A stretch of DNA of 64,000 bases from Escherichia coli. GTDB taxonomy: Bacteria > Pseudomonadota > Gammaproteobacteria > Enterobacterales > Enterobacteriaceae. The position numbers and the translations under genes were made by a program. The stretch lies in the NCBI RefSeq assembly GCF_024298765.1, contig NZ_CP101210.1; one strand, 5' to 3'. The notes under the pieces were generated by a model that saw nothing but the letters and a program-made list of their open reading frames with translations, made no database searches and had not been told where the DNA came from. Positions 42,891 through 47,594 of this stretch are shown here, in pieces (within the stretch, counting starts at the first letter, position 1; every line of letters begins with the position of its first letter).

Positions 42891-43684
42891 ATTTAATATC
42901 ACCTAAAGAGAATTTGGTTAGCTCAAACTGTTGTGTGGATTTTCTGTGGTAGCGGATCCTACCACGACTCTGCAGGTTAAAAACACTGGCAGTCTGAGTG
43001 TTAATCGGTATGGATGGATTAACATCTGGATGGCTATTTTAGGTCAATTCTTCACCCGATTTCCACTTTTTTTTGAATCGTGTCTCATTCTGTTAAAAAC
43101 GTGGCTGGAAATTTTTCCTGACAATGCTGGCATTCTGCGTATTTATCTTTTGCAATTTTCTGCCATTGTGGGGTATAAAACGCGGCGCGCGGCTTAAATA
43201 AAAAGCACACGACGTTTCTTTCGTGTTGCCACTTCCAGCCGGGTTGAAAACAGAGTTTTGGCTTGTGGGTTCGTCTTAACAGGCGGCCGTGGAGGTGATA
43301 CGAAATAATGAACCGTTGTCTGCTGCTTAACCTGTCTCACCGTTCTGGTGAAGATTCGTTCCCCGCACTCTGCATCTCTGCTTTGCATACCTGCCGATGT
43401 TATACCCATCTCGGCGCTTCTCAGGATTCAAGAGCTGGTTACAGCTACTGAGGACTGAACAAGGGCGCTCTTGTAAAAACAAGAGTTTTCTCGTGGTTTC
43501 GCCGAACTGTCACACTTACGTTCGGTTATGTGCTTAATAATGTTATGAAAAAGAAACCGGTTGCGCAGTTGGAGCGTCAGCATTCACTGCTGGAAAATCC
43601 ATGTGCTTATGGGTTGTTATCGCAGTTCCAGGCTGCGATAGTCGTTAACTGTTTTACACTTAATAAAATAATTTGAGGTTCGCT

Positions 43685-45661
43685 ATGTCTGACGACATGT
43701 CTATGGGTTTGCCTTCGTCAGCGGGCGAACACGGTGTACTACGCTCCATGCAGGAGGTTGCAATGAGCTCCCAGGAAGCCAGCAAGATGCTGCGTACTTA
43801 CAATATTGCCTGGTGGGGCAATAACTACTATGACGTTAACGAGCTGGGCCACATTAGCGTGTGCCCGGACCCGGACGTCCCGGAAGCTCGCGTCGATCTC
43901 GCGCAGTTAGTGAAAACTCGTGAAGCACAGGGCCAGCGTCTGCCTGCACTGTTCTGTTTCCCACAGATCCTGCAGCACCGTTTGCGTTCTATTAACGCCG
44001 CGTTCAAACGTGCGCGGGAATCCTACGGCTATAACGGCGATTACTTCCTCGTTTATCCGATCAAAGTTAACCAGCACCGCCGCGTGATTGAGTCCCTGAT
44101 TCATTCGGGCGAACCGCTGGGCCTGGAAGCCGGTTCCAAAGCGGAGTTGATGGCGGTGCTGGCACATGCTGGCATGACCCGTAGCGTCATCGTCTGCAAC
44201 GGTTATAAGGACCGCGAATATATCCGCCTGGCATTAATTGGCGAGAAGATGGGCCACAAGGTCTATCTGGTCATTGAGAAGATGTCAGAAATTGCCATTG
44301 TGCTGGATGAAGCAGAACGTCTGAATGTCGTTCCTCGTCTGGGCGTGCGTGCACGTCTGGCTTCGCAGGGCTCGGGTAAATGGCAGTCCTCCGGCGGGGA
44401 AAAATCGAAGTTCGGCCTGGCGGCGACTCAGGTACTGCAACTGGTTGAAACCCTGCGTGAAGCCGGGCGTCTCGACAGCCTGCAACTGCTGCACTTCCAC
44501 CTCGGTTCGCAGATGGCTAATATTCGCGATATCGCGACAGGCGTTCGTGAATCCGCGCGTTTCTATGTGGAACTGCACAAGCTGGGCGTCAATATTCAGT
44601 GCTTCGACGTTGGCGGCGGTCTGGGCGTGGACTATGAAGGCACCCGTTCGCAGTCCGACTGTTCGGTGAACTACGGCCTCAATGAATACGCCAACAACAT
44701 CATCTGGGCGATTGGTGATGCGTGTGAAGAAAATGGTCTGCCACATCCGACGGTAATCACCGAGTCGGGTCGTGCGGTGACTGCGCATCACACCGTGCTG
44801 GTGTCGAATATCATCGGCGTGGAACGTAACGAATACACGGTGCCGACCGCGCCTGCAGAAGACGCACCGCGCGCCCTGCAAAGCATGTGGGAAACCTGGC
44901 AGGAGATGCACGAACCGGGAACTCGTCGTTCTCTGCGTGAATGGTTACACGACAGCCAGATGGATCTGCACGATATTCATATCGGCTACTCTTCCGGCAC
45001 CTTTAGCCTGCAAGAACGTGCATGGGCAGAACAACTCTATCTGAGCATGTGCCATGAAGTGCAGAAGCAACTGGATCCGCAAAACCGTGCGCATCGTCCG
45101 ATTATCGACGAGCTGCAGGAACGTATGGCTGACAAAATGTACGTCAACTTCTCGCTGTTCCAGTCGATGCCGGACGCATGGGGGATCGACCAGTTGTTCC
45201 CGGTTCTGCCGCTGGAAGGGTTGGATCAAGTGCCGGAGCGCCGCGCTGTGCTGCTGGATATTACCTGTGATTCTGACGGTGCTATTGATCACTACATCGA
45301 TGGTGATGGTATTGCCACGACAATGCCAATGCCGGAGTACGATCCAGAGAATCCGCCGATGCTCGGTTTCTTCATGGTCGGCGCATATCAGGAGATCCTC
45401 GGCAACATGCACAACCTGTTCGGTGATACCGAAGCGGTTGACGTGTTCGTCTTCCCTGACGGCAGCGTAGAAGTAGAACTGTCTGACGAAGGCGATACCG
45501 TGGCGGATATGCTGCAATATGTACAGCTCGATCCGAAAACGTTGTTAACCCAGTTCCGTGATCAAGTGAAGAAAACCGATCTTGATGCTGAACTGCAACA
45601 ACAGTTCCTTGAAGAGTTCGAGGCAGGTTTGTACGGTTATACCTATCTTGAAGATGAATAA
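43685..45661 (+). CDS. speA: Biosynthetic arginine decarboxylase
   Basis: Recognised SpeA; start at [16 protein letters not shown] (658 aa). Confidence 0.9.
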
Positions 45662-45677
45662 TTAAGATTATTCCGCT

Positions 45678-45719
45678 GGCGGGTCGATTTATTTACGTAA
45701 ATCGGCCCGCTTTCTTTTT
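45678..45719 (+). terminator. Hairpin plus T-rich run after speA
   Basis: GCGGGTCGATTTA…TAAATCGGCCCGC (one mismatch) followed by TTTCTTTTTA. Confidence 0.5.
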
Positions 45720-45806
45720 ATATATTCTTAAAAATAATTTAGCTGCTTTTCTTATTAAATAATCTCCCTACAATCGCTGCATTAATTAAATGCAGAGGGA
45801 ACGGTT

Positions 45807-46538
45807 ATGAAAAAAGGGAAAGTACGTAGCGCGTTGATAGCATTAGCCGTGCTGCTGGCCGGTTGTTCCAGTAATGCGCAGTATAATAGCAGTGCATCAG
45901 GCAATGTCGGCACCGCCTGGGGTGGGGATGTGCACTCAACGGTTCAGGGCGTATCTGCTGAGCGAGCTTGGCGCGATCCGGCAGAGATGATCGTTATTAG
46001 TTATTCGACGACTGTTCCTTCGGGCTACGACCGCGTTTATAGCATTCGTATTAACGAACTTGAATATGCTATTCGCGATGGTAATTTTAATTCTCTACCT
46101 ATTACGCGGGTTTATGATTCGTCAAATAATGAACCACGCTATATTGTCCATGCCAGAGTAGGAATGAATTATCAATTATATGTCCGCAATTACAGTCGTA
46201 ACACCAACTACGAGATCGTTGCTACGGTTGATGGCCTGGATGTGCTGAACGGCAAGCAAGGTTCGCTGAATAACAACGGCTATATTGTGAATGCCGGAGA
46301 TTCGTTAGCGATTAAAGGATTCCGCAAAGATAAACATACCGAAGCGGCTTTTCAGTTCGCCAACGTTGCTGATTCCTACGCAGCCAATTCGGCGCAAGGC
46401 GATGTGCGTAATACCGGTGTAATCGGCTTTGCCGCCTTTGAATTACAAGGCCCGGCGCAAAACGCGCTGCCGCCGTGCTCTGGACAAGCCTTTCCGGCAG
46501 ATAACAATGGCTATGCGCCGCCACCGTGTCGGAAATAG
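45807..46538 (+). CDS. Hypothetical lipoprotein inserted between speA and speB
   Basis: 243-aa ORF with lipobox (LLAGCSS); RBS GAGGGAACGGTTATG; no recognised family. Confidence 0.6.
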   Translation: MKKGKVRSALIALAVLLAGCSSNAQYNSSASGNVGTAWGGDVHSTVQGVSAERAWRDPAEMIVISYSTTVPSGYDRVYSIRINELEYAIRDGNFNSLPITRVYDSSNNEPRYIVHARVGMNYQLYVRNYSRNTNYEIVATVDGLDVLNGKQGSLNNNGYIVNAGDSLAIKGFRKDKHTEAAFQFANVADSYAANSAQGDVRNTGVIGFAAFELQGPAQNALPPCSGQAFPADNNGYAPPPCRK

Positions 46539-46673
46539 CAACCTCGCTTGATGCCTCGCCCATTTAAGGCGATAATTAGCACAAAATTGTGTTTCGCAAA
46601 TCCAACCCTTCCTCGTCGGGCCTAACGACGCGGAAGGGTTTTTTTATATCGACTTTGTAATAGGAGTCCATCC

Positions 46674-47594
46674 ATGAGCACCTTAGGTCATCAATACGAT
46701 AACTCACTGGTTTCCAACGCCTTTGGTTTTTTACGCCTGCCGATGAACTTCCAGCCGTATGACAGCGATGCTGACTGGGTGATTACTGGCGTGCCGTTCG
46801 ATATGGCCACTTCTGGCCGTGCGGGGGGGCGCCACGGTCCGGCAGCGATCCGTCAGGTTTCGACGAATCTGGCCTGGGAACACAACCGCTTCCCGTGGAA
46901 TTTCGACATGCGTGAGCGCCTGAACGTGGTGGACTGCGGTGATCTGGTATATGCCTTCGGCGATGCCCGTGAGATGAGCGAGAAGCTGCAGGCACACGCC
47001 GAGAAGCTGCTGGCTGCCGGTAAGCGTATGCTCTCCTTCGGTGGTGACCACTTTGTTACGCTGCCGCTGCTGCGTGCTCATGCGAAGCATTTCGGCAAAA
47101 TGGCGCTGGTACACTTTGACGCCCACACCGATACCTATGCGAACGGTTGTGAATTTGACCACGGCACCATGTTCTATACCGCGCCGAAAGAAGGTCTGAT
47201 CGACCCGAATCATTCCGTGCAGATTGGTATTCGTACCGAGTTTGATAAAGACAACGGCTTTACCGTGCTGGACGCCTGCCAGGTGAACGATCGCAGCGTG
47301 GATGACGTTATCGCCCAGGTGAAACAGATTGTGGGTGATATGCCGGTTTACCTGACCTTTGATATCGATTGCCTGGACCCTGCATTTGCACCAGGCACCG
47401 GTACGCCGGTAATTGGCGGCCTGACCTCCGATCGCGCCATTAAACTGGTACGCGGCCTGAAAGATCTCAACATCGTTGGGATGGACGTAGTGGAGGTGGC
47501 TCCGGCATACGATCAGTCGGAAATCACCGCTCTGGCAGCGGCGACGCTGGCGCTGGAGATGCTGTATATTCAGGCGGCGAAAAAGGGCGAGTAA
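46674..47594 (+). CDS. speB: Agmatinase
   Basis: 306-aa ORF recognised as SpeB (arginase-family Mn-binding motifs). Confidence 0.9.

Follow-up and report, generated by a model that had tools for sequence, protein, structure and literature searches.

A probably ancestral lipoprotein gene between speA and speB of Escherichia coli, absent from K-12-type genomes

Results and discussion

The interval between speA, which encodes arginine decarboxylase, and the gene for agmatinase (speB) was analysed in a stretch of 64,000 nucleotides of Escherichia coli contig NZ_CP101210.1 (assembly GCF_024298765.1), referred to below as the window. The gap between the two genes measures 1012 bp (45662-46673) and contains, on the plus strand at 45807..46538, a gene for a 243-amino-acid lipoprotein precursor, identified from the list of open reading frames (ORFs), its homologues and a RefSeq coding sequence (CDS). 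We consider it very likely that this is a genuine, stand-alone gene which has occupied the speA-speB slot since the ancestor of Escherichia, Salmonella, Citrobacter and Klebsiella and was not inserted there; K-12 represents the derived state at this locus. An earlier note on this DNA had described a lipoprotein gene with its own ribosome-binding site in a gap of about 1 kb, and had given the gap in K-12 as only about 140 bp. Both descriptions were correct: the ORF is preceded by a GAGGGA sequence and encodes a lipobox, while K-12-type genomes have 137 bp between the two genes and K-12 lacks the lipoprotein gene.

Conservation of the lipoprotein gene

The 243-codon ORF is a genuine gene and not a chance ORF, since it has full-length homologues (E = 1e-155 to 1e-33), exhibits a ratio of non-synonymous to synonymous divergence (dN/dS) of 0.07-0.13 within Escherichia and corresponds to a RefSeq CDS. 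The gene is under purifying selection. Homologues of 243 ± 1 amino acids at 58-76% identity were found in Salmonella, Citrobacter, Klebsiella, Kluyvera and others. The RefSeq counterpart in O157:H7, WP_000758914.1, is named 'lipoprotein' and is the same gene, with a CDS at the identical speA-speB position and a protein of the same length that is approximately 98% identical; the window protein departs from records of this type by allelic differences only (e.g. G4W, A17I). Elsewhere, across thousands of E. coli genomes, the CDS at this position is recorded as 'hypothetical protein' or 'membrane protein'. The gene is thus already annotated in genome records, with no function attached to any of them.

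An orthologue of the same length, at 53-95% identity, lies directly 3' of speA in Salmonella, Klebsiella aerogenes and Citrobacter freundii. The same position is occupied in E. whittamii and three further (cryptic-clade) Escherichia lineages, as well as in several Citrobacter, Kluyvera, K. spallanzanii, Intestinirhabdus, Phytobacter, Kosakonia, Entomohabitans and an Enterobacter sp. Where an enterobacterial orthologue locus includes speA, that gene is the upstream neighbour without exception (14 of 14 loci), with one extra ORF intervening in Entomohabitans. The orthologous group as a whole shows 53-98% identity over 243 amino acids. In E. albertii the gene stands in front of speB on a contig that begins inside it, and a protein labelled E. 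fergusonii falls in the same 90% cluster. The orthologues of Salmonella, Citrobacter and Klebsiella (e.g. UniRef A0A701H2Z8_SALTM) are 62-76% identical to the window protein, measure 242-244 amino acids, possess a lipobox, follow speA directly and are named 'outer membrane lipoprotein', 'membrane protein' or 'hypothetical protein'. In Salmonella an island encoding a GntR regulator, mannitol dehydrogenase and others parts the gene from speB.

The heading of the earlier note spoke of an insertion between speA and speB; taken as an event in this lineage, this would make the K-12 arrangement ancestral. The gene has a G+C content of 0.43-0.48, below the 0.54-0.60 of speA and speB; short junctions without it occur in many enterobacterial lineages; and the slot does accept insertions, given the different cargo that it carries in other enterobacteria. 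Insertion is nonetheless hardly credible. The gene is found at the same site in other Escherichia species and in at least eight other genera, and a search of its flanks in the window revealed no terminal inverted repeats, no target-site duplication and no mobility genes, the repeats present being short and at chance level. Synonymous divergence (dS) from other Escherichia species is similar for the lipoprotein gene (approximately 0.32-0.35) and speB (approximately 0.25), as under vertical descent, and it is the short allele that bears non-Escherichia states at the adjacent end of speA. Alternatively, the ORF might be a decaying and unexpressed relic, dispensable in E. coli and heading for loss. 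It is missing outright from approximately 35% of genomes, and the protein evolves far faster than SpeB, with a dN between genera of 0.17-0.36 as against 0.004-0.075. There is also a truncated, E. coli-like variant (P0025) of 174 amino acids with 448 member sequences, diverging after residue 167 (…DSL|GKVRTSP), which suggests recurrent or clonal disruption in some E. coli. A relic would, however, scarcely show the dN/dS recorded within Escherichia, a length of 243 amino acids maintained across genera, an intact start codon, Shine-Dalgarno sequence and lipobox in the window, and 3542 genomes matching the whole region at 95% identity or more; we attach only a very small probability to it. The preferred reading is that of an ancestral gene, vertically inherited and maintained.

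Long and short alleles in E. coli

Comparison of the intergenic region across 5426 complete E. coli genomes resolved two alleles. The long allele of the window was represented by 3542 genomes, in which the full 1.5-kb region was matched at no less than 95% identity, and a short, K-12-type junction was matched in 1865. A K-12-specific 66-mer occurred in 1867 genomes, once in each, solely at the speA-speB locus and never in a genome with the long allele. The two alleles are mutually exclusive and jointly account for approximately 5409 of the genomes. Long-allele genomes include O157:H7 and NCTC86, while K-12 derivatives, BL21 and an O103:H2 strain carry the short allele. From the stop codon of speA, the K-12-type junction runs for 137 bp to the start of speB. 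It has in common with the window (98% or more, or identical) the end of speA, a hairpin followed by U7 (the second of two in the window), the ribosome-binding site of speB and the speB gene, but has neither the first terminator nor the lipoprotein gene and possesses instead its own 57-nucleotide stretch carrying TTGAAT-17-GATAAT.

The gene has been lost in K-12, and about one third of sequenced E. coli are without it. The earlier suggestion of a lineage-specific gene lost in K-12 was therefore right as to the loss but not as to the lineage, the gene being apparently ancestral to the Enterobacteriaceae and carried by 65% of the complete E. coli genomes, a set whose members are not phylogenetically independent, so that 65:35 should not be taken as a population frequency. 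The difference between K-12 and most other E. coli is one of ordinary gene content. Its direct importance is small, the difference being routine and the gene already in the records, although models of a 'speAB operon' based upon K-12 omit a terminator and a gene held by most E. coli and by the genus as a whole.

Origin of the short allele

In K-12-type genomes, approximately 935 bp of the long allele (45662-46596 in the window, from the speA stop codon to CAAATCC; delimited by alignment and without strand) are replaced by approximately 57 bp of dissimilar sequence. The replaced segment comprises the first terminator, the lipoprotein gene and the spacer of the speB-proximal promoter-like boxes. 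The short allele is not a clean deletion. Between its 57 bp and the 61 bp situated 3' of the lipoprotein stop codon in the long allele, only a loose alignment was obtained, at approximately 52-60% identity (differing at approximately 40-48% of positions), and these 61 bp are nearly invariant among E. coli, E. whittamii and E. albertii. Both alleles keep the boxes CTTGA...17 nt...GATAAT and two small palindromes at equivalent positions. Within the final 600 nucleotides of speA, four positions distinguish every short allele from every long Escherichia allele. Of these fixed differences, three (at speA -4, -19 and -103) lie within 103 nucleotides of the junction, where the short allele shares its base with Salmonella and K. 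aerogenes; downstream of the junction there is one fixed difference in 677 nucleotides. Short, lipoprotein-less junctions with homologous boxes are present in many other enterobacteria. The pattern fits replacement of roughly 160 bp at the least, plus the gene, by a foreign junction of this kind. Because the 57 bp are diverged and outgroup-type sites cluster beside the junction in speA, a lipoprotein-less junction acquired by recombination from another enterobacterium is favoured over an event in situ, with about an even chance of being correct.

An origin inside Escherichia, by deletion or a complex local event after which the 57 nucleotides diverged or were scrambled without any imported DNA, appears rather unlikely, though it has evidence in its favour. 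The segment keeps the box positions and both small palindromes of the long allele, as if descended from it. The short allele stands on flanks that differ by up to 2.3%, so it must be old. A search for a donor of an imported junction found none, the best short junction outside E. coli being 63-68% identical (among 48 metagenome contigs with short junctions). Set against this, approximately 20 or more substitutions would have to have arisen in 57 nucleotides with none in the adjoining hairpin and speB leader, although the corresponding 61 nucleotides hardly vary from E. coli to E. albertii; and a local deletion leaves unexplained the clustered fixed differences in the last 103 nucleotides of speA, which match outgroup genera. 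Besides the missing donor and the composition of the genome set, two further points weigh against our account of the locus as a whole: an all-against-all comparison of gene neighbours at 54 loci found none conserved beyond the level of family or genus, and lipidation, outer-membrane localisation, promoter and transcript boundaries, as set out below, are inferred from sequence.

Further searches with the short allele yielded little. Against 17 enterobacterial loci the 57-nucleotide segment gave matches at noise level only, though at the orthologous position, and no second copy of it was found in any E. coli genome of the survey. An enterobacterial contig (L094) is approximately 75% identical to the short allele over the promoter core, as counted by eye. 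Deletion between copies of the 9-nucleotide direct repeat TTTTTATAT, which follows both terminators, was rejected as a source of the short allele, because it would retain the first hairpin and K-12 retains the second.

Transcription signals between speA and speB

The 658-amino-acid product of speA is read from the ATG at 43685 (43685..45661, plus strand; ORF list and RefSeq annotation of matching records), the mechanically derived ORF beginning upstream at TTG 43673; its orthologues possess the Pfam domains Orn_Arg_deC_N, Arg_decarb_HB and Arg_decarbox_C. Directly 3' of the gene, a consensus scan and RNA folding identified an intrinsic-terminator-like hairpin with a T-run (45678..45721, plus strand), in agreement with the earlier note. 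The hairpin proper (45678-45711) has a 15-bp stem and a 4-nucleotide loop, is followed by TTTCTTTTT and has a folding energy of -23.4 kcal/mol (z = -4.77), a stability equalled by none of 200 shuffled sequences. Hairpins at the equivalent position occur in Salmonella, Klebsiella and Citrobacter, and none is present in K-12-type alleles.

In the A+T-rich stretch 3' of this terminator, the sequence TACAAT (45769..45774, plus strand) lies 32 nucleotides before the lipoprotein ATG and resembles a -10 box. Its -35 is poor and the box was read from the sequence, not being called by the consensus scan. TAC(A/T)NT-like boxes recur with this spacing in Salmonella, K. aerogenes, C. freundii, C. portucalensis, K. 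spallanzanii, Kluyvera and an Enterobacter sp., which suggests a promoter of the lipoprotein gene's own, followed by a short leader. A Shine-Dalgarno sequence, GAGGGA (45795..45800, plus strand), is situated 6 nucleotides before the ATG. Upstream of it, CUCCCU (45763-45768) is predicted to be capable of pairing with the Shine-Dalgarno region AGAGGGA around an inner hairpin CUGCAUU/AAUGCAG; the fold of 45740-45830 has an energy of -26 kcal/mol (z = -3.7), and analogous pairings at the Shine-Dalgarno sequence are seen in Salmonella (CCCCCU/AGGGGG) and Phytobacter (CCCUG/CAGGG). The pairing across 45763-45800 could mask the ribosome-binding site on read-through transcripts coming from speA.

Between the lipoprotein stop codon and the second hairpin, the consensus scan identified the sigma-70-like boxes TTGATG-17 nt-GATAAT (46548..46576, plus strand), a candidate speB-proximal promoter. 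The boxes, as CTTGA...GATAAT, are retained both in other genera and in the K-12-type allele, and it is the spacer between them that diverges. The second terminator-like hairpin with its U7 (46605..46645, plus strand; from folding) ends 28 nucleotides before the ATG of speB, which encodes a 306-amino-acid agmatinase (46674..47594, plus strand; PF00491). Its stem comprises 14 bp with one mismatch and its loop is GGGCCUA; hairpin and U7 are identical between long and short alleles, and the hairpin, loop included, is maintained across 14 taxa, which show compensatory changes of the types A-U/U-A and C-G/U-A. Supplementary file 3 of a Term-seq study of K-12 (PMC7815308) lists an RNA 3' end 30 nucleotides upstream of speB. 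As both alleles are identical at that position, this end can be assigned to the U-run of the second hairpin. A terminator between speA and speB is therefore already present in K-12, and the long allele adds a second one together with a gene. The contrast with K-12 is smaller than had been assumed, since K-12-type genomes retain the second hairpin and U7. It is plausible, as the earlier note had suggested, that the long allele interrupts co-transcription of speA and speB, because two terminator-like hairpins separate the genes there.

The arrangement of these elements suggests the following model. A strong intrinsic terminator of its own would end the transcription of speA; the lipoprotein gene would follow with its conserved -10-like box and Shine-Dalgarno sequence; and past its stop codon the sigma-70-like boxes, the conserved hairpin with U7 and the speB ribosome-binding site would succeed one another. 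From this layout of terminators, -10-like box and Shine-Dalgarno sequence, the lipoprotein gene is probably a separate transcription unit nested between speA and speB.

The promoter-then-terminator layout ahead of speB (46548-46645; also L001, 1775-1871) would give an RNA of approximately 60 nucleotides or an attenuated speB leader. A search of 43300-47000 against Rfam matched no RNA family. Upstream of speA, the window contains the yqgB/yqgC region and the speA leader (43397-43685). For K-12, PMC7815308 describes Rho-dependent premature termination, together with a yqgB upstream ORF, in the 5' untranslated region of speA.

Features of the lipoprotein

The N-terminus of the precursor, MKKGKVRSALIALAVLLAGC, combines a basic n-region and a hydrophobic core with the lipobox L-A-G-C. 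Codons 1-20 (45807-45866) encode the signal peptide and lipobox: the signal peptide, MKKGKVRSALIALAVLLAG|C, ends in LLAG|C20, Cys20 being encoded at 45864-45866, and the cysteine is invariant in all 53 of the diverse homologues aligned. An Asp at position +2 is the signal for retention in the inner membrane of E. coli. The mature N-terminus of the present protein reads C-S-S-N, with no Asp at +2. As Ser and not Asp follows the lipidated Cys, the product is most likely a Lol-sorted outer-membrane lipoprotein facing the periplasm. It would leave the cytoplasm through Sec, receive its lipid on Cys20 and be processed by signal peptidase II.

An AlphaFold2 model, built with the 53-sequence alignment, contains a confidently predicted all-beta domain at residues ~33-213 (mean predicted local distance difference test score, pLDDT, 82) between a disordered lipid tether (21-30) and a disordered C-terminal tail. 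The tail is Pro-rich with a conserved AFPAD..YAPPPC motif, represented in the family as AFPxD...YAPPP. The alignment has 29 invariant columns, among them C20, T36/W38/G39, R53, Y66, Y122, N128, E136, V141-D142-G143, G158-Y159, G171-F172-R173, F182 and Y191. On the predicted beta domain W38, R53, Y66, Y122, N128, E136, D142, Y159, R173, F182 and Y191 would form a strongly conserved surface. Searching the model against folds in the PDB returned no significant neighbour. The weak best matches were MATH/TRAF-like and Ig-like beta-sandwiches, including the MATH domain of SPOP and the TRAF-like domain of USP7, all-beta sandwich modules that bind peptides; the lipoprotein model is likewise all-beta. 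HAUS3, returned by a sequence-profile search of the PDB at E = 0.26, was discarded as a chance hit, and no related PDB sequence was found. With a short tether, a compact beta domain and a proline-rich tail, the protein may bind an envelope ligand or partner in the periplasm, and a binding module of this kind is its most likely role.

The lipoprotein is a member of a large and uncharacterised family of Proteobacteria. Profile searching gathered 4201 clusters (50% identity) at E ≤ 1e-3, of which 3257 reached E ≤ 1e-10. The earlier note had also looked to a profile search to place the lipoprotein; no family above threshold was obtained from Pfam, NCBIfam, PADLOC or PHROGs. Pfam and PADLOC gave no hits for the window protein, the best Pfam match across 53 family members and 10 long relatives was at E = 0.016, NCBIfam's best hit reached 14.7 bits where the cut-off is 375, and PHROGs gave nothing better than E = 0.039; the weak NCBIfam and PHROG hits are confined to the signal region. 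The wider family extends over Beta-, Alpha- and Gammaproteobacteria (Variovorax, Comamonas, Ralstonia, Paracoccus, Neisseria, Providencia, Pseudomonas aeruginosa PA7 and others), whose members are 36-44% identical to the window protein over the mature sequence and share with it the motifs LGTxWGE, Y(E)IVATVDGLDV, GFRK, VAAFRF and AFPxD..YAPPP. They mostly have a lipobox; the two cysteines of the tail are missing in most. Some carry long Pro/Ala-rich N-terminal linkers, and long relatives searched for domain fusions contained solely low-complexity Pro/Ala-rich linkers. One member, a 283-amino-acid metagenomic representative (P0399), is circularly permuted, with the VATVDG...GFRK...VGLIGVA half first and the PQLGTEYGE...YAPPP half last. 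A conserved envelope family with neither an assigned function, a library profile nor a PDB fold neighbour is a reasonable, if unspectacular, target for study in a non-K-12 strain.

Relation to polyamine metabolism

The location of the gene raises the question of a part in the arginine-to-putrescine pathway, as an envelope partner of SpeA or as a sensor or handler of agmatine or putrescine, its position reflecting co-regulation. Synteny with speA is strict across the Enterobacteriaceae, and Buch and Boyle are said to have placed E. coli SpeA in the cell envelope in 1985. Trabulsiella offers a second neighbourhood with a polyamine gene, a 40%-identical paralogue being found there at 0.8 kb from a speG-like acetyltransferase gene, an adjacency that may be coincidence; in Trabulsiella guamensis (L010 / L034, 6001-6759) the paralogue sits between ynfD-like (DUF1161) and ynfC-like (UPF0257) genes. 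We give such a role a slim chance. Polyamine genes are absent from the neighbourhoods of homologues in Providencia, Variovorax, Gilliamella, Proteus, Neisseria, Pseudomonas PA7 and Paracoccus. Outside the Enterobacteriaceae the gene stands alone among unrelated housekeeping genes: in the metJ-priA region in Providencia, between hisD and hisC in Variovorax, beside thrS in Gilliamella and beside map in Proteus. The pathway operates without the gene in one third of E. coli and in many enterobacteria, the gene is set apart from speA by a terminator and a -10-like box of its own, and in Salmonella speB no longer adjoins it. As gene neighbours are not conserved outside the Enterobacteriaceae, context offers no clue to function, and with no family model and no significant PDB fold neighbour either, a polyamine role is unsupported.

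A slimmer chance still attaches to the broader proposition that this is a very large family which escaped Pfam and NCBIfam, partly because K-12 lacks the gene, and which in Enterobacteriaceae is functionally tied to the arginine decarboxylase pathway. Were that so, the protein might bind agmatine or putrescine in the periplasm from an outer-membrane anchor, or might act as partner to envelope-associated SpeA, and the long and short alleles would confer different speB regulation and polyamine physiology upon lineages of E. coli.

Variable content of the speA-speB slot

The slot between speA and speB looks like a hotspot for gene-content change. Among the enterobacterial loci compared, it holds an ORF with a PHP domain (L097, 2447-3346), genes for a pectate lyase, a solute-binding protein and AP-endonuclease-2 (L094, 1-3323), the GntR/mannitol-dehydrogenase island of Salmonella (L004, 5886-10732) and, in Entomohabitans, the extra ORF, of 295 amino acids (L026, 4637-5524). 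In C. freundii (L007, ~5780-5905) an insertion of approximately 125 nucleotides separates the speB-proximal boxes from the hairpin; its core, GGGTCCCCAGGAGCATAGATAACTATGTGACTGGGGGG, is presumably akin to the enterobacterial repetitive intergenic consensus (ERIC).

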